From: a virus
Length of the DNA stretch: 52,506 bases
Direction: 5' to 3' (one strand)
UHGV virus genome: UHGV-0041832
The position numbers and the translations under genes were made by a program. Below are positions 9,642 to 40,823 of this stretch, in pieces. Under the pieces are notes generated by a model. That model worked only from the letters and a program-made list of their open reading frames with translations. It did not search any database and was not told the DNA's origin. Numbering within the stretch: the first letter of the stretch is position 1; the number at the start of each line of letters is the position of its first letter.

Positions 9642-9868
9642 CAGATCCCGCCGTTGCGTGATATTTGTTTTTCGCTTCGCAGCGACACCGGATTTTTAAA
9701 GAGCATAAGGTAAGTGCCTTTTTGTGCCTTCAGTTATCTTTTTCCTTGCGTCTTTGCAAGTATGGCCTTACCTTGTCTGCAAGTTTACAAAATGGAATTT
9801 TAAGATCAAGGCTTAAAATACACGTTTTGTGACTTGCATCAAACTTTTTGAGGTTATAGGGTAGCGAC
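9642..9868. promoter_or_regulatory. Immunity region with divergent early promoters (PR-like leftward, PRM-like rightward)
   Basis: 227-bp gap between divergent HTH gene and cI; candidate -35/-10 pairs on both strands; TTGCAT-N15-TATAGG ending ~7 nt before the cI ATG suggests a near-leaderless cI transcript; contains one copy of the dispersed motif (9784-9796). Confidence 0.5.
9681..9713 (-). promoter_or_regulatory. Candidate nutR-like site (boxA + boxB hairpin) on minus strand
   Basis: Minus-strand GCTCTTTAAAAAT (boxA consensus CGCTCTTTAA) followed 6 nt later by UCGCU-GCGA-AGCGA hairpin with GNRA loop. Confidence 0.4.
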
Positions 9869-10516
9869 ATGAAAACAAAATGGTATGACTTAGCAAAGCA
9901 GCTCATGCGGGCGCAGGGCATGAGCCAGGATTCACTCGCGGATCGTATGGGGATAACTAAAGGCGGCCTGTCACACTGGCTGAACGGTCGCCGAGAGCCA
10001 AATCTTGAAGATATTGCGCGGATTATGCGCGAGCTTGGTCGTCGGCAGTTTACTGTTACACATGATGGCATGGTCATTGATGATTCTGTTTCTAATACAC
10101 TTCAGGCCGTGCCGCCGCGTGATTTAGGTAGTTACCCGGTTATTGACTGGAAGGACACAGTAAACAATATGGATGACGCAAGGCGTTCAGCATTACGACA
10201 CGTTACGACTAGCGTTATTTGTTCAGATGACAGTTACTGGCTGGTTGCCAAAGGTGAATCAATGAACGCGCCGCAGGGGTTGAGCATCCCGGCGGGGACG
10301 ATGATACTTGTGGACCCGCACGCGCCAGCTATTGACGGCAAACTGGTTATAGCCCAGCTTGAGGAAGGGCAGATACCGACGTTTAAACAGTTGATTATTG
10401 ATGGAGGTCAAAGGCTTTTACGTTCGCTCAATCCGCTGTATCCGCCAATCCCTATGAATCCAGAATCAAAAATTATAGGCGTGGTGGTTGATGCGAAGAT
10501 CGTAAACCTGCCATAA
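9869..10516 (+). CDS. cI: CI-type prophage repressor (XRE HTH + LexA-like S24 peptidase domain)
   Basis: 215 aa; N-terminal HTH (SQDSLADRMGITKGGLSHWLNGRREP); C-terminal S24 fold with GESMNAP (Ser) and downstream Lys context. Confidence 0.9.
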   Translation: MKTKWYDLAKQLMRAQGMSQDSLADRMGITKGGLSHWLNGRREPNLEDIARIMRELGRRQFTVTHDGMVIDDSVSNTLQAVPPRDLGSYPVIDWKDTVNNMDDARRSALRHVTTSVICSDDSYWLVAKGESMNAPQGLSIPAGTMILVDPHAPAIDGKLVIAQLEEGQIPTFKQLIIDGGQRLLRSLNPLYPPIPMNPESKIIGVVVDAKIVNLP

Positions 10517-10545: not shown

Positions 10546-10753
10546 NNNNNNNNNNNNNNNNNNNNNNNNNNNNNNNNNNNNNNNNNNNNNNNNNNNNNNN
10601 NNNNNNNNNNNNNNNNNNNNNNNNNNNNNNNNNNNNNNNNNNNNNNNNNNNCTTTTCTTTGCCTGGAAAACACCAAAACGTAAACAGAAAACGTTATTTA
10701 TTATTTAAATATCAATGCCATATAAAATATTTTAAAAAAGTATACAAAATGGA

Positions 10754-10782
10754 TTGACTCGATGTTTTACGGGGCGTATATT
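10754..10782 (+). promoter_or_regulatory. PL-like sigma70 promoter
   Basis: TTGACT (10754-10759), 17-nt spacer, TATATT (10777-10782); dispersed motif copy immediately upstream (10741-10753). Confidence 0.55.
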
Positions 10783-14795: not shown

Positions 14796-14894
14796 CAGCG
14801 TGATTGCGATCACATAAATATACATTTTGTGTTGTGATCGCGTATCCGTTTTGTAAACAGAAATCAAAAGGTTTACGGCACGGAGGAAAACAAG

Positions 14895-15113
14895 ATGGCC
14901 CGCGAATACATGCTTTATTGCGTTGAGGGTGGCGTAGGCCATGATGCCTACGTCGCCGGGAAAAGCTATCCAGCCGATGAAGTGCTTTCTAATATGCACT
15001 TCCGGGAAAATGAAAGCCAGGTGTCTGTGTGGAAACGGTGCATTGATGGTATTGAGGTTGTAAGCATCGAACGGTATTTAGGTGCGTTTGATTACGGTGT
15101 TATTGAGGCTTAA
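14895..15113 (+). CDS. Hypothetical protein
   Basis: 72 aa ORF with GGAGGA SD. Confidence 0.45.
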   Translation: MAREYMLYCVEGGVGHDAYVAGKSYPADEVLSNMHFRENESQVSVWKRCIDGIEVVSIERYLGAFDYGVIEA

Positions 15114-18172: not shown

Positions 18173-18174
18173 AG

Positions 18175-18253
18175 TTTACAAAATGGAGTCATTGCGTGAT
18201 ATGGATCACATAATGTCGCTTTTCGCCTTGTTCTGGTGTATCCATTTTGTATA
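18175..18253. repeat. Inverted pair of dispersed motif (TTTACAAAATGGA ... TCCATTTTGTATA)
   Basis: Forward copy 18175-18187, reverse copy 18241-18253, in the gap between the MTase-like gene and ninG. Confidence 0.8.
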
Positions 18254-18522
18254 CTTCAAGCAAACAAAATGCTCTTTAAAAATCCGGCAGCGCTGAAATG
18301 CGTAGAAATCACCTGAAAAGGAGAGAGCATTATGTCTTTTGATGATTACCAATGGCATGACGACTATGAACGAGAAAGCGTTATGCGTGCAATGTGCAAT
18401 GTATGCAGCACGAAGAAAGGAGGCTGTAACGAGTGCAACGAATGCTTAGAACATTGGCTAAGGGCCGGACACGCCGAAAGGCTGAACGAAACAGAGAATC
18501 AAAAATAATCGGGGTGGTTTTT

Positions 18523-19532: not shown

Positions 19533-19711
19533 AAAACGAAGTTAAAGATCTGCAAATAGATATTCAGCGCGACGAGCGTGATTTAGAGACGGTCCGACAA
19601 ATCCAGGCTTTCCACATGCGCGAATTACTTGCGCTGAAAGAGTTCGAAAGAAAGCTGGTGCAATCCATTTCTGATCGTAAACGGCTGGCGGCGCGTTATG
19701 AGGGCAAATAA
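19529..19711 (+). CDS. Hypothetical small coiled-coil protein
   Basis: 60 aa ORF, coupled. Confidence 0.4.
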   Translation: MKNEVKDLQIDIQRDERDLETVRQIQAFHMRELLALKEFERKLVQSISDRKRLAARYEGK

Positions 19712-20439
19712 TGAATTTAGAATCCATTCTAAAATTCCACTTTCCTAAATCACCGCGATTATCTGACGAAAGCCGGGGCACGTCCCCGGACGCTCTTAAT
19801 ACGACGGATGCGCTAACCGCTGCGGGTATGGCGCAATCGCGCGTAGAGCTTGGATATGGCGCTTTTTTAGGGAAGATGGAACTATCACAAGCCGAAAAAC
19901 ATAGGGCCGTAGTTTTGCTTACAGAGCGTTTAAGGGCTATGGCGAAAGATTACGAATACGTGATGGAGTTAAACGAGGATCAGCGCAATGGACTTATTAT
20001 TCTTGTTGCCGTTTTCGCGTTTCGGGATTATTGCCAGAGTGCGGCGACCGAAAAAGTTTGCCCTAAGTGCGGCGGCCACGGGCATTTACCAAATCCATAT
20101 TGCAAATACACATCGACAATTTGTTCGCGGTGCAACGGCAAAGGCTACGTTAAAAACCATTGCCAACGTTGCAAGGGGCGCGGAGAAGTACCGGATAAAG
20201 CAGCCAGTGAAGCGGCGGAAATGCCAGTATTCAAAACGTGCCAGCATTGCGGCGGGCGCGGGTACTCGCGTTTCCCGGTAGATCTCGTCCGGCAGGCCGT
20301 TAACCAGCTTGTTTTCCCGGTAAGCAGATCAACATGGTGGAAGAAATACCGGGTTTTCTATGAAGACGCCATAGCGGAGCTATTCAAAGAAGAGGCCCGC
20401 GCGGAAAGCGAAATTAAACGAGTGACACGGGGTGAATAA
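19711..20439 (+). CDS. Q-like late antiterminator candidate (zinc-finger rich)
   Basis: 242 aa starting MNLESI..., multiple CxxC pairs (CPKCGGHG, CSRCNGKG, CQRCKGRG, CQHCGGRG); position after NinG/RusA as for Q in lambdoid phages. Family assignment from memory, not verified. Confidence 0.55.
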   Translation: MNLESILKFHFPKSPRLSDESRGTSPDALNTTDALTAAGMAQSRVELGYGAFLGKMELSQAEKHRAVVLLTERLRAMAKDYEYVMELNEDQRNGLIILVAVFAFRDYCQSAATEKVCPKCGGHGHLPNPYCKYTSTICSRCNGKGYVKNHCQRCKGRGEVPDKAASEAAEMPVFKTCQHCGGRGYSRFPVDLVRQAVNQLVFPVSRSTWWKKYRVFYEDAIAELFKEEARAESEIKRVTRGE

Positions 20440-23248: not shown

Positions 23249-23490
23249 AAGTGAATTATTTCAGGGCAAAAGACAAGGCAACAGGAAAGCGGGTGGCTAT
23301 CCTGGTTAATGAAGCAAATTATATGTTTGTTCTCCAGCCGTGGTGCATAGCTGACTATAACGATGATTATCGCCGTCACGCTGCGCGGCGGGCGGTCGGG
23401 ATGAAAGGCTGGCAGCCTCGCGACATGCTTAATTACTGCGACTGGAATCTGATAGCAAAATACACGGTCGATTATAAAGGGGTTTTCTGA
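23245..23490 (+). CDS. Hypothetical protein
   Basis: 81 aa ORF. Confidence 0.4.
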   Translation: MKVNYFRAKDKATGKRVAILVNEANYMFVLQPWCIADYNDDYRRHAARRAVGMKGWQPRDMLNYCDWNLIAKYTVDYKGVF

Positions 23491-23702
23491 TGCAAGTTAA
23501 ATGCTCATACTCAAGCAATGACAGTGTTTTCACGATTGGGAGTATTTATGACGTTCACATCGTTTATGGCAATGAAGCACACACAATGAGTAATTGCCTT
23601 GCCTTGATTGATAATCATGACGAAATATGGGTATTCAGGCCGAGCTATGAAGGCGGTGAAATATCCGGTGTAGGTTTTGCTGCCAGCTTTGAACGTTATT
23701 AA
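23490..23702 (+). CDS. Small protein, island paralog family member
   Basis: CSYSSNDSVFTIGSIYDV...ALIDNHDEIWVF shares FxxGxIY...(I/V)xDxxxxxW pattern with neighbours. Confidence 0.45.
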   Translation: MQVKCSYSSNDSVFTIGSIYDVHIVYGNEAHTMSNCLALIDNHDEIWVFRPSYEGGEISGVGFAASFERY

Positions 23703-23980: not shown

Positions 23981-24220
23981 ATGAATCGGAAACATAGATA
24001 CCAGTGCACATACTCACGATGCAGCGCGTTTTTTAAGAATGGCAAGATCTACGAGGTTGACGCGGCATTGGTTGACGCAAAGGATCAGGAATATATTCAT
24101 GCCATTACTGACGACCAGGGGCAGTTATGGCGATTTTATAAGATGGGTTGTGGCACGGCGCTTGTTTATGCGCGTGCTGGTGGTGGTGCTTTTGCTGCGT
24201 TTTCGTATGTAGGGGTATGA
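23981..24220 (+). CDS. Small protein, island paralog family member
   Basis: CTYSRCSAFFKNGKIYEV...AITDDQGQLWRF pattern. Confidence 0.45.
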   Translation: MNRKHRYQCTYSRCSAFFKNGKIYEVDAALVDAKDQEYIHAITDDQGQLWRFYKMGCGTALVYARAGGGAFAAFSYVGV

Positions 24221-24441
24221 AAATGATTTTAACGTGTAACGAATCGAAATTGGGCTGTTTTGAGGAAGGCGTACAGTACACGGCTGAAAAACCGATGGGA
24301 TTGTCTCCTAAATTTCCGTTTATCGTCGTGACTGACACTTACGGTCACTTATGGTATGCAGGGCCGCTAGGCGGTATTGGTCGTTATGTTGTCCGTAGTT
24401 CGGATGGGGCGATGAAGGTTACTTTTACGGAAGAAACGTAA
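24217..24441 (+). CDS. Small protein, island paralog family member
   Basis: LTCNESKLGCFEEGVQY...VVTDTYGHLWYA pattern; ATGA overlap with upstream gene. Confidence 0.45.
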   Translation: MKMILTCNESKLGCFEEGVQYTAEKPMGLSPKFPFIVVTDTYGHLWYAGPLGGIGRYVVRSSDGAMKVTFTEET

Positions 24442-24539
24442 ATGTGATCTGTATCACAAGGTTTACGAAATGGCATTGTTTCGGCAGTGCCATTTTGTTA
24501 TAAAGAAGCTGAAGAGAGAACGATGCGGAGGGTAGAAAA

Positions 24540-24818
24540 ATGAAACGCTGGATTAACAAAGAAGTCGAATCTCGCTTAAACGCATTTTGGGAGATGGTGG
24601 AGAAAGAAGACCCAGCACACGCTGCAAGCCCTTACCTGAACAACATCGAATATCACTACATTGCAGCAAACAACGCGGAGTTCGAAGAAGAAGGTGGAGC
24701 CGACAAGTTCGCACAAAGCAACGCATTCAACAACGCAAACGAAATGATGATGGCAGTCATCGAACAGGCAGAGGAAGACTACGAATGCAAATCACTTGAA
24801 TTCGCACGTATGGCATAA
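24540..24818 (+). CDS. Hypothetical acidic protein
   Basis: 92 aa ORF with GGAGGG SD. Confidence 0.45.
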   Translation: MKRWINKEVESRLNAFWEMVEKEDPAHAASPYLNNIEYHYIAANNAEFEEEGGADKFAQSNAFNNANEMMMAVIEQAEEDYECKSLEFARMA

Positions 24819-24828
24819 GGGGGAAACC

Positions 24829-24969
24829 ATGAACGCTAACGCTAAATATCCGGCCTGGGTTTTCGAACTGTACGCAAGATACTTTGAATTACTGGCACAA
24901 GGTGAAGAAGCATTAAGCATTGACGAGTACGCGGAGTGCTTAGGGTTTAAAGGAGACGAAGAAGCATAA
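24829..24969 (+). CDS. Possible 46-aa acidic protein
   Basis: Hand-translated MNANAKYPAWVFELYARYFELLAQGEEALSIDEYAECLGFKGDEEA with AAGGGGG SD. Confidence 0.35.
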   Translation: MNANAKYPAWVFELYARYFELLAQGEEALSIDEYAECLGFKGDEEA

Positions 24970-25012
24970 AACACGGGGCCGGATGGCCCCATCAAATCAG
25001 AAGGGTGTAATC

Positions 25013-25312
25013 ATGAAAAGCGCTAAATTTATTGCTTGCTGTTTTGTTGAAGTTCCTAACGATGATGTTTTCTGTAATTATGAATTTAAAGACAGCTTAG
25101 GCAGATCTCATGTTGTTGTTGGTAAGCGCGGCGACTGGTTATATATCACTGATGGAGACAGGATCTTCACTAAAAACCAGTTGTTAATAATAAAGGCAGA
25201 AAATGATGAAATACCAGTAGGTAATATGGGGATTATGAATTATCACGCTGGTTTATTGTTAAAGCACGATACGGTAAACAAAGCGCGTAGCTTACCTGGT
25301 GCGGAGTTTTAA
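25013..25312 (+). CDS. Small protein, possible island paralog
   Basis: Start at MKSAKF with AAGGG SD; VVVGKRGDWLYITDGDRIF pattern. Confidence 0.4.
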   Translation: MKSAKFIACCFVEVPNDDVFCNYEFKDSLGRSHVVVGKRGDWLYITDGDRIFTKNQLLIIKAENDEIPVGNMGIMNYHAGLLLKHDTVNKARSLPGAEF

Positions 25313-26132: not shown

Positions 26133-26319
26133 ATGCCTTATAGCTGTGATTGTTTTGCTTTATATCGCTGGCGCTATCCTGATGTCTTGTTTTATTAAGT
26201 TTAGCGGAGCTGAACCTGGCGGCCTTGAGATTCCTTTTTGGCCTGTGACTGTGTTTATCGCTTTCTTCGACGCTACGGCAGGGCAGATCAATCGAGCTAT
26301 TAAGGAGCGCAAGAAATGA
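26125..26319 (+). CDS. Small membrane protein (two helices)
   Basis: MIECLIAVIVLLYIAGAILMSCFIKF...PFWPVTVFIAFFDA; overlaps upstream stop. Confidence 0.4.
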   Translation: MIECLIAVIVLLYIAGAILMSCFIKFSGAEPGGLEIPFWPVTVFIAFFDATAGQINRAIKERKK

Positions 26320-26495
26320 TTGAAGATGGGGTGTACGCAACAGTAGTAGACGGGCTGTTTTACCGCGTAGAAGGTGATGATATTCGCATCCGCGTTGGCG
26401 GTGGTGAGTGGGTAGCGCCAATCATTAAGACGACGCGAGAAACAATTAAAATATTTCTTGATGCTGGTGAACTGGTGAGGGTTAGCGACCTATGA
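26316..26495 (+). CDS. Hypothetical 59-aa protein
   Basis: Hand-translated MIEDGVYATVVDGLFYRVEGDD...; ATGA-coupled. Confidence 0.35.
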   Translation: MIEDGVYATVVDGLFYRVEGDDIRIRVGGGEWVAPIIKTTRETIKIFLDAGELVRVSDL

Positions 26496-36600: not shown

Positions 36601-36756
36601 TTTCGTATTTCCTGTAACTCCCCGGCGCGATGCCGGGGNNNNNNNNNNNNNNNNNNNNNNNNNNNNNNNNNNNNNNNNNNNNNNNNNNNNNNNNNNNNNN
36701 NNNNNNNNNNNNNNNNNNNNNNNNNNGGGGATTTTTTTGTATGTGGAGCAAACAAA

Positions 36757-40163: not shown

Positions 40164-40823
40164 TTAATTCCAGTTGCAAGCGTTTTTCACTTTGTCGATG
40201 TGGTTATAAAGACCATCAATGTTAAACACTGCTTTCTCAATGTCGCCAGCTTCCGGCACTACTTCAATGATGAATTGTTTTTCGTTAACCAGTTTTTTAA
40301 TCATTGGGATGGCTTTTTTGCCGTCCCATAATCCAAGAGCTTTATAATTAGTTGACCGCCACCACTCAGTAGCTACAGCTTTGTGAACGCCGATCCGGTA
40401 GTTAATATAAGTAGTGTCCCCGGCGTCAGTTACATGGTGTGACCATGCTACGAACATTTTTGTTTTATTACCCTGGCAAGCGATTGTTAATACCGGTTTA
40501 TTCTTATCCTGTGCCTTCAGTGTCGGGAAAGCATCAAGACTTCCGCTGAATTGTTCTGCTTTCACAAAAAGGAATACGTTTTTTGCGTCCTGCATATCAT
40601 CTTTTCTTTCAACTACAAGCCACTGTTTACCAGCATTTTCTTTTTCTAACTGTGCATCGTATGCGGCTTGTTTTGCTTGTTGTTCTGCAAGCCATTTAGC
40701 ATTTTTCTCTGCTAATGCTTGTTGCTCTTGATTGGTCACTATAGGCGCTTTTTCATTATCCTCATTGCAACCAACCAGACCCAATACCGCCGCAATCATT
40801 GCCACTTTTGCTAACCGTTTCAT
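40164..40823 (-). CDS. Lipoprotein with N-terminal coiled coil (moron)
   Basis: MKRLAKVAMIAAVLGLVGC lipobox; 219 aa; opposite strand, upstream of the BamE-like lipoprotein gene. Confidence 0.6.
   Translation of the reverse strand: MKRLAKVAMIAAVLGLVGCNEDNEKAPIVTNQEQQALAEKNAKWLAEQQAKQAAYDAQLEKENAGKQWLVVERKDDMQDAKNVFLFVKAEQFSGSLDAFPTLKAQDKNKPVLTIACQGNKTKMFVAWSHHVTDAGDTTYINYRIGVHKAVATEWWRSTNYKALGLWDGKKAIPMIKKLVNEKQFIIEVVPEAGDIEKAVFNIDGLYNHIDKVKNACNWN

Follow-up and report, generated by a model that had tools for sequence, protein, structure and literature searches.

The 98-nt non-coding gap that runs from an upstream stop codon at 24441 to the ATG at 24540 of the virus genome UHGV-0041832 is, we propose with moderate confidence, a transcription-unit boundary at which a terminator-like RNA hairpin overlaps a CRP-type promoter. 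The window, i.e., the whole stretch of 52,506 nt that was analyzed, is the complete genome of a temperate coliphage of the mEp021-like (mEpimmI) type, and the region matches mEp044, mEp010, mEp013, mEp021 and MagusPhagus as well as Escherichia coli prophages. The mEpimmI phages have been defined as a group, all members of which form one shared immunity group, and their published regulatory annotation extends to nut sites and a few terminators (PMC11893012). The gap lies in an island of about 25 small open reading frames on the + strand, bounded by a λ-family Q gene and a holin-lysozyme-spanin cassette; the island reading frames tested against Pfam and PHROGs were assigned to families of unknown function only. 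An earlier note, made from the sequence alone, had described the gap as the only sizeable one in the island, and it is indeed the largest inside the Q-to-holin array, the remaining gaps being at most 43 nt long except for a 106-nt gap that bounds the array before holin. A compositional break was looked for at the gap and none was found. The sequence features, their departure from chance, the layout shared with other modules and the pattern of conservation and presence in relatives are observed; that a promoter is active here, where it starts, that CRP binds to it and that transcripts end in the gap is inferred. The coordinates of all features are collected in Table 1.

The first of two palindromes in the gap, TGTGATCTGTATCACA, starts 2 nt past the stop codon of the upstream gene and represents an exact CRP core, TGTGA-N6-TCACA (10/10), which is the sole exact core in the 52.5-kb window. 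The corresponding 22-mer AAATGTGATCTGTATCACAAGG (24440-24461) agrees with the CRP consensus at 17 of 22 positions, with all of positions 1-11 matched. When up to one mismatch is allowed, TGTGA-N6-TCACA is found at six sites in the window as compared to 1.49 expected, a number reached in 0 of 100 shuffles. All six of these sites are non-coding, and each adjoins GT(T/A)TACAAAATGG or its complement CCATTTTGTA(T/A)AC. The earlier note had located both palindromes correctly, including the 6-nt arms of the first, and the second proved to extend to a 15-bp stem with a TTCG loop; they are, however, adjacent and not nested as had been stated. As RNA, the first palindrome folds weakly (-4.6 kcal/mol) and without significance (z = -0.8), the paralogous palindromes likewise do not exceed shuffled sequence (z = -1.5 and +0.2), and a role as RNA hairpin or terminator was rejected on these grounds.

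The palindrome is the first part of a layout that recurs in the phage, namely palindrome, 17 bp, TTGxxx, a spacer of 16-17 bp containing the core of a dispersed motif, and a -10 element. Such arrangements with at least 9/10 palindrome matches occur four times in the window (at 9.8, 14.8, 18.2 and 24.4 kb) and 0 times in 300 shuffles, and a fifth, weaker copy with 7/10 palindrome matches lies on the - strand at 40.9 kb. Aligned on the motif, the modules at 14.8, 18.2 and 24.4 kb are in perfect register, while the one at 9.8 kb is offset by one base. The distance of 17 bp from the palindrome 16-mer to the -35 element is identical to that in lac P1, as checked on the K-12 sequence. In the gap, the -10 element TATAAA carries a TG at -15/-14, its spacing to the -35 element is 17 bp, and these elements are conserved in register. 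The spacer of the 18.2-kb module contains CCATTTTG and the module is followed by the boxA sequence CTCTTTAAAAA (18272-18282, nutR2); likewise, the 16-nt spacer of the leftward 9.8-kb module contains CCATTTTG and a boxA (nutL) follows at 9703-9693. The three boxA-like sequences of the window correspond to the nut sites published for the mEpimmI group (PMC11893012), and boxA/nut sequences lie 20-75 nt downstream of pR, of the 9.8-kb module and of the 18.2-kb module. Since nut sites must be transcribed, the 9.8- and 18.2-kb modules are well placed as pL and as a second rightward promoter, and since both copies lie, like pR, just upstream of boxA/nut, the architecture is probably that of a promoter.

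Comparison with related phages is in line with this. A scan of the window together with 46 relative loci recovered through Q showed the 14.8-kb module in 45 of these 47 sequences, and the 18.2-kb module is conserved in relatives as well. In both, the half-sites TGTGA and TCACA do not change and the 6 bp between them are variable, and TTG and the -10 element are conserved in register across the 14.8-, 18.2- and 24.4-kb families. Fixed half-sites around a free centre, with TTG and -10 in register, are what a dimeric CRP-type site linked to a promoter should look like. A search for the module outside the mEpimmI group returned matches in seven mEp-like records only. The module family is a previously undescribed, phage-wide family of CRP type, of which the gap element itself would be an ordinary kind of promoter/terminator module. 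In the GenBank record of mEp021, the purely predicted feature 'TERM_4' (20087-20120) coincides with the 18.2-kb palindrome, the RNA fold of which has a z of -1.5. Two further CRP-like palindromes with 9/10 core matches (44419-44434 and 51892-51907) lie just downstream of or overlap a copy of the motif; they overlie the predicted transcription start, which is a repressing and not an activating position. Other assignments of promoter elements in the gap were discarded upon inspection: both TTTACG as a -35 element and a class II CRP site at -41.5 lack a -10 element at the required distance, and a sigma-54 reading of TGGCA-N-GC was rejected because the GC dinucleotide varies in relatives.

Of 46 relatives, 36 have a single copy of the gap element, which lies 3.3-5.0 kb past the start of Q and 1.6-2.6 kb before holin, and the gap copy is an accessory element. 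In E. coli M1/5 (CP053296) and MS 21-1 the copies reach 99-100% identity. In E. coli prophages the element of approximately 95 nt stands next to unrelated upstream genes, and in relatives it directly precedes geneA, geneB or geneC, which in the window are the three genes that follow the gap. Hardly any change was seen in the motif arms, TTGTT and TTTTGTTATA among 38 unique variants, and none in TTTTGTT; the -10 element reads TATAAA in 16 variants and TATATA in 17. Conservation is higher in the element than in the coding DNA on either side of it, and most of the variation falls on the hairpin loop and the centre of the palindrome. In relatives, the left CRP half-site is kept. The CRP core scores 10/10 in nine of the 38 variants, 9 in eight, 8 in seven, 7/10 in ten and 6 or less in four, and the right half-site is intact (9-10/10 core matches) in 17; it often reads CCCCGCA or CTCGCA in relatives. 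Homopolymer variation was observed at two places: a run of 13 C replaces the right half-site in one prophage (equivalent of 24452-24458), and at the ribosome-binding site (equivalent of 24525-24532) another prophage carries 13 G and a close relative 7 G. Slipped-strand variation or an artefact of assembly could account for this.

The motif associated with the modules, CC(A/G)TTTTGTA(T/A)AC, is present in about 14 full copies, all non-coding. It was recognized by inspecting the sequence around the six near-CRP sites and not by a test of the 8-mer: in the window, the 8-mer AAATGGCA alone was not enriched (7 found, 4.2 expected), and AATGGCA-N12-TGCCATT with mismatches showed no excess. By contrast, the 13-mer with up to one mismatch occurs nine times as compared to approximately 0.06 expected by our own estimate, and with up to three mismatches 39 times as compared to 19.7 expected, with 0 of 100 shuffles reaching 39; the 8-mer core of the motif occurs 27 times as compared to 6.4 in shuffles. 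Eleven of the about 14 full copies point toward the next gene and lie approximately 40-50 nt upstream of its start codon. As the full motif is enriched and dispersed, the second palindrome of the gap can be described as an inverted pair of it, and in this respect the earlier note, which had called it a degenerate inverted pair of the dispersed motif, was borne out. The leftward copy forms the left arm of the palindrome, between the CRP-type site and the -35 element, and in most relatives reads CCATTTTGTA(A/T)ACT. A second inverted pair at 40.9 kb has the identical 16-nt GG..CC spacing; the leftward gene next to it (40164-40823, 219 aa) encodes a domain assigned by Pfam to VasI of type VI secretion (E = 1.2e-15), a kind of cargo not usual in the structural region of a siphophage. 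At pR (10740-10759) the motif is reversed and stands directly against the -35 element, GTATACAAAATGGA-TTGACT, in an A-rich, UP-element-like stretch, and the left arm of the gap palindrome upstream of TTGTTT occupies the equivalent position. The 14.8-kb module carries a second, direct motif-like copy, ATACATTTTGT, between palindrome and -35 element (14815-14831 and relatives), where the gap element has the inverted copy.

A feature that the other modules lack is the 15-bp UUCG hairpin of the gap copy, with its U-rich tail. The full hairpin was calculated at -19.9 kcal/mol on the + strand (z = -6.8) and at -11.2 kcal/mol on the - strand; its core (24471-24492) has four G-C pairs and -12.2 kcal/mol and is followed by UUUUGUUAU (24493-24501). 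With an upstream A-tract flanking the stem, the hairpin is terminator-like for transcripts reading in from upstream, and the homologous site is annotated as the ARNold terminator T7 in mEp044 and predicted also in mEp010. In an alignment of 31 unique variants, 99.6% of the cells are paired and the loop varies freely. For 27 of these variants the + strand folds at about -20 kcal/mol as compared to -6.8 to -15.4 kcal/mol for the - strand; six stem pairs vary, on one side only and via wobble, and all of the frequent changes are compatible with pairing on the + strand only. The motif pair at 40.9 kb is strand-symmetric (-13.4 kcal/mol on the + strand, -13.6 kcal/mol on the - strand) and has no inner stem, hence six inner pairs are specific to the gap hairpin. 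Rfam 15 gave 0 matches at or above the gathering score for the whole window, and for the gap hairpin only a chance-level mir-33 hit (E = 0.82).

Several observations weigh against the proposed boundary. Ten of 46 relatives and mEp021 lack the element, and the right CRP half-site is degenerate (8/10 core matches or fewer) in 21 of 38 unique variants. The -35 element of the gap matches at 3/6 positions only and the -10 element at 5/6, without the usual final T, and a simple consensus promoter scan of the window did not list the site. Similarly, a terminator scan of the window did not list the hairpin, and the first four U of UUUUGUUAU pair with the upstream A-tract in the minimum-energy fold. 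No double-sided compensatory covariation was detected in the 31 variants and a shuffle control did not discriminate, so that support for selection on the hairpin is suggestive only; conservation of the stem could instead come from the constraint on promoter and motif. The idea of the earlier note that an internal operator or promoter subdivides the island gained support from the comparison, namely from the four like modules, the nut-adjacent copies and the conservation in spite of differing flanks, which together suggest such an element. Its alternative, an RNA processing signal, was upheld in part, insofar as a + strand hairpin with a U-rich tail, in which the changes seen are compatible with wobble pairing, is present; this resembles an intrinsic terminator or 3'-end structure for upstream read-through more than a processing site.

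We propose that, at the DNA level, the gap would act as a sigma-70 promoter built on the 'house' pattern of this phage. The CRP-type TGTGATCTGTATCACA would be centred about 60.5 bp upstream of a start near 24511 (at -60.5 relative to this predicted, unmapped start), followed 17 bp on by the weak -35 element TTGTTT, a 17-bp spacer with CCATTTTG, the extended -10 element TGT-TATAAA and a leader to the 92-aa gene. As no nut site follows the gap promoter, transcripts should run for approximately 2.2 kb and stop at 26732-26750 before holin, and the second half of the island would form a separately regulated unit, probably responsive to cyclic AMP (cAMP) and CRP. At the RNA level, read-through from pR or the 18.2-kb promoter via Q would fold the motif pair together with the six inner pairs, and for RNA polymerase that has not been modified by the N-like protein Gp17, the hairpin followed by UUUUGUUAU should function as an intrinsic terminator or stabilise the 3' end.

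The main rival explanation is that the dispersed motif, the palindrome, or both are operators of a phage regulator such as a CI-like repressor, with the gap pair as a bivalent operator gating transcription of the island, for which P1 C1 operators or mycobacteriophage stoperators would be models. It would account for an asymmetric motif with about 14 non-coding copies genome-wide, some of them at or beside pL and pR, and for two inverted pairs that share an identical 16-nt spacing; moreover, the sequence near pR in mEp021 shows no further conserved palindrome, and a single mEpimmI immunity group (PMC11893012) would fit conserved genome-wide operators. At pR, however, the motif lies upstream of the -35 element and not over the promoter, a CI-like repressor of the helix-turn-helix (HTH)/S24 kind is expected to bind symmetric sites, and the register of TTG and -10 as well as the spacing to start codons match what a promoter core would show. 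We consider this explanation unlikely as a replacement for the promoter, with which it is nonetheless compatible: operators often overlap promoters, and the two are not mutually exclusive. Somewhat less likely still is an intrinsic terminator only, which would separate two blocks of the N-antiterminated delayed-early transcript and leave the promoter features as by-products of motif reuse. The strong + strand hairpin with its U-rich tail 24 nt past the stop codon, the strand asymmetry maintained in 31 variants and the ARNold predictions in mEp044 and mEp010 are all what such a terminator would show, yet it leaves unexplained the exact CRP core and the fixed 17 bp to TTG, which are shared with modules that have no hairpin, as well as the conserved extended -10 element and the constant leader length to the next ATG; additionally, the hairpin core reaches just -12.2 kcal/mol with its four G-C pairs.

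The fact that flanking genes differ among relatives and that geneA is common to virulent rV5-like phages might suggest that the gap is without function, a mosaic junction or recombination 'linker' with chance palindromes that owes its distribution to recent horizontal spread. This is improbable, given that the element is better conserved than the flanking coding DNA, that its variation is confined mainly to the hairpin loop and the palindrome centre, that its architecture is shared with other modules far beyond chance and that there is no compositional break at the gap. Even lower is the probability that the gap is a Q-dependent late promoter, i.e., the equivalent of pR'/qut, as might be thought since no other non-coding stretch of any size lies between it and the λ-type Q gene (PF03589), the more so as the hexamer AACGAT (24519-24524) is similar to the λ pause element. 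The gap element is missing in mEp021 and in 10 of 46 relatives having the same Q, AACGAT is absent from the geneB- and geneC-type leaders, and a far better candidate for pR', pause and tR', nearly invariant in 44 relatives, lies before holin; the presence/absence data and this site at 26676-26750 effectively refute a late promoter in the gap.

Returning to the CRP-type promoter with an overlapping terminator-like hairpin, it may be extended to a mEpimmI regulon of house promoters, which would drive much of the transcription of these phages, in which a lac-like CRP site at about -60 is combined with the hitherto undescribed 13-nt signature as genome-wide operator of a phage regulator, and of which the gap would be an accessory, catabolite-sensing member expressible from the prophage. 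We put this forward tentatively, as possible and on the whole doubtful. If true, the 13-nt signature would possibly be the operator of the repressor behind the single immunity, similar to those of P1 or to stoperators, and the back-to-back motif copies of the gap would double as a terminator.

Compared to class I CRP promoters, the gap has an exact core and, as in lac P1, 17 bp to the -35 element. Its weak -35 and imperfect -10 elements are typical of activator-dependent promoters, and in its paralogous modules the half-sites are kept and the centre is variable, as in this class. Contrarily, its spacer carries the phage-specific CCATTTTG, which is absent from lac, and roughly half of the orthologous gap copies have a degenerate right half-site. 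In coliphage T1, direct control of the pir, dam and recE promoters by cAMP-CRP has been shown experimentally (Laganenka et al., 2019, PMC6737242), which shows that the host catabolite regulator can be wired to multiple promoters of a coliphage. CRP represses in T1, whereas the geometry predicted here suggests activation at four modules, and the two phages are unrelated. With respect to termination, the gap is similar to Rho-independent terminators, including bidirectional ones with an A-tract and a U-tract, in that a stable stem-loop and a U-rich tract stand just past a stop codon; it differs in that the stem is largely an inverted promoter motif with only four G-C pairs in its core, and in that the sequence is conserved almost base for base and not as a structure alone.

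The unit downstream of the gap also recalls the morons of lambdoid phages that Juhala and colleagues reportedly described in 2000. It would likewise be an accessory, polymorphic block (gap element in 36/46) with its own, here predicted, promoter and a downstream terminator. Different from morons, it comprises about nine small genes in approximately 2.2 kb and not one gene, shows no compositional contrast and would use the shared tR'-like terminator at 26732-26750, and downstream genes such as geneC exist in relatives without the element. With regard to the motif, the C1 operators of phage P1 are dispersed asymmetric operators. The same applies to the stoperators of Cluster A mycobacteriophages (PMC9283540). 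As in both systems, an asymmetric non-coding motif of about 13 nt is present here in many copies, with some inverted 'bivalent' pairs and overlap with promoters, in a phage group with one shared immunity. In contrast to them, the orientation of the motif relative to transcription is not uniform (11/14), and the repressor is a CI-like HTH/S24 protein, unlike P1 C1 and L5 gp71. The CI-like repressor, a homologue of Rep021, is encoded at 9869-10516 of the window, and no operator was defined for Rep021 in the description of the group (PMC11893012).

Table 1. Positions of the gap features, the paralogous modules and the neighbouring genes and signals in the window.
Feature	Position	Strand	Details
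CRP-type palindrome TGTGATCTGTATCACA	24443-24458	.	6-nt arms, 4-nt centre
Leftward degenerate motif copy	24461-24473	-	CCATTTCGTAAAC on - strand, GTTTACGAAATGG on + strand
UUCG hairpin, 15 bp	24465-24498	+	stem 24465-24479 / 24484-24498, loop 24480-24483
Second palindrome AAATGGCA-N12-TGCCATTT	24468-24495		extends to 15-bp stem
Predicted -35 TTGTTT	24476-24481	+	17 bp after palindrome 16-mer, 17 bp before -10
Rightward motif copy CCATTTTG fused to extended -10	24490-24504	+	TGT-TATAAA at 24496-24504
Predicted start and leader	24511-24539	+	start 24511 or 24512, leader of 28-29 nt, from -10 position
Shine-Dalgarno GGAGGG	24527-24532	+	ahead of ATG 24540
Gap module	24.4 kb	+	TGTGATCTGTATCACA / 17 / TTGTTT / 17 (contains CC(A/G)TTTTG) / TGT-TATAAA
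Leftward module, candidate pL	9782-9843	-	palindrome 9828-9843, TTGATC 9809-9804, TAAACT 9787-9782
Module P14.8	14799-14859	+	CGTGATTGCGATCACA / 17 / TTGTGA / 16 (contains CCGTTTTG) / TAAACA; ATG at 14895
Module P18.2	18174-18282	+	leftward motif copy 18174-18186, then CGTGATATGGATCACA / 17 / TTGTTC / 16 / TATACT
Second inverted motif pair TTATACAAAATGG-N16-CCATTTTGTATAA	40870-40911	.	between divergent genes, tail region
boxA-like site, nutL	9703-9693	-	
boxA-like site, nutR1	10826		
boxA-like site, nutR2	18272		
Canonical pR	10754-10782		TTGACT-17-TATATT
Q antiterminator gene, λ-type	19711-20439		Pfam PF03589 at 4.8e-30; phrog_127
geneA	24540-24818	+	92 aa, phrog_7287; first gene of predicted downstream unit
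geneB	24829-24969	+	46 aa, phrog_22232; predicted downstream unit
GGGGCC-GGAT-GGCCCC hairpin	24975-24990	+	22 nt upstream of geneC start
geneC	25013-25312	+	99 aa
λ pR'/tR'-like late promoter (candidate)	26676-26750	+	TTGTAG / 17 / TAAAAT / 7 / AACAAT; island right boundary
Strong terminator before holin	26732-26750	+	
Holin-lysozyme-spanin cassette	26775-27925		

The candidate late promoter before holin is comparable to λ pR', which reads TTGACT-17-TAAATT-6-AACGAT in the λ sequence. From approximately 10 nt upstream of its -10 element through AACAAT it is nearly invariant in 44 relatives including mEp021. AACAAT is a -10-like pause element at about +1 of this promoter. Its -35 region occurs in two variants among relatives, and the conserved spacer AAACAAA(C/T)AGAT could be a Q-binding element. 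A late promoter at this position would place the island between Q and the late promoter, in the tail of the N-dependent rightward transcript. The GGGGCC-GGAT-GGCCCC hairpin reported in the earlier note exists; it lies one base further on than given there (24975-24990, not 24974-24989) and is separate from the gap module. It was calculated at -14.0 kcal/mol (z = -3.3) and is conserved at 24 loci, that of mEp021 among them; its loop varies, and C-to-T substitutions in the stem leave G.U pairs on the + strand. A consensus scan lists it as terminator-like on the - strand only. Since a U-tract is lacking on the + strand, we read this hairpin as a leader or stability structure, probably one of the mRNA in the geneC leader.

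Further observations concern the neighbouring genes and the state of the genome sequence. GeneA shares approximately 70% nucleotide identity with genes of more than 100 virulent rV5-like (Vequintavirinae) phages, a likeness which indicates gene exchange between temperate and virulent coliphages. Two pairs of paralogues were found among the small genes of the island, the adjacent 26316-26495 and 26492-26668 (both phrog_15318) and 23490-23702 and 23981-24220 (both phrog_31142). The window contains three runs of masked bases (10546-10651, 36639-36726 and 51398-51445). The first of them lies between the repressor-gene terminator and pR, hence part of the immunity region is unreadable here; in mEp021 only approximately 60 nt of A/T-rich sequence are present at that position.

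Taken all together, the analysis yields a regulatory map, concrete enough to be tested, of a coliphage group that was defined recently and is common and prevalent in the human gut. The enigmatic array of about 25 genes would have two parts, one proximal to Q and a distal one under separate control, and the likely late promoter is relocated to just before the holin gene. The conserved 13-nt motif is flagged as a candidate binding site. For annotation it is instructive that the T7 hairpin of mEp044 and the TERM_4 palindrome of mEp021, both called 'terminator', are embedded in promoter-like modules. Finally, the recurrence of the CRP-type modules suggests that host cAMP-CRP provides an input to early and accessory transcription at several promoters of these phages.

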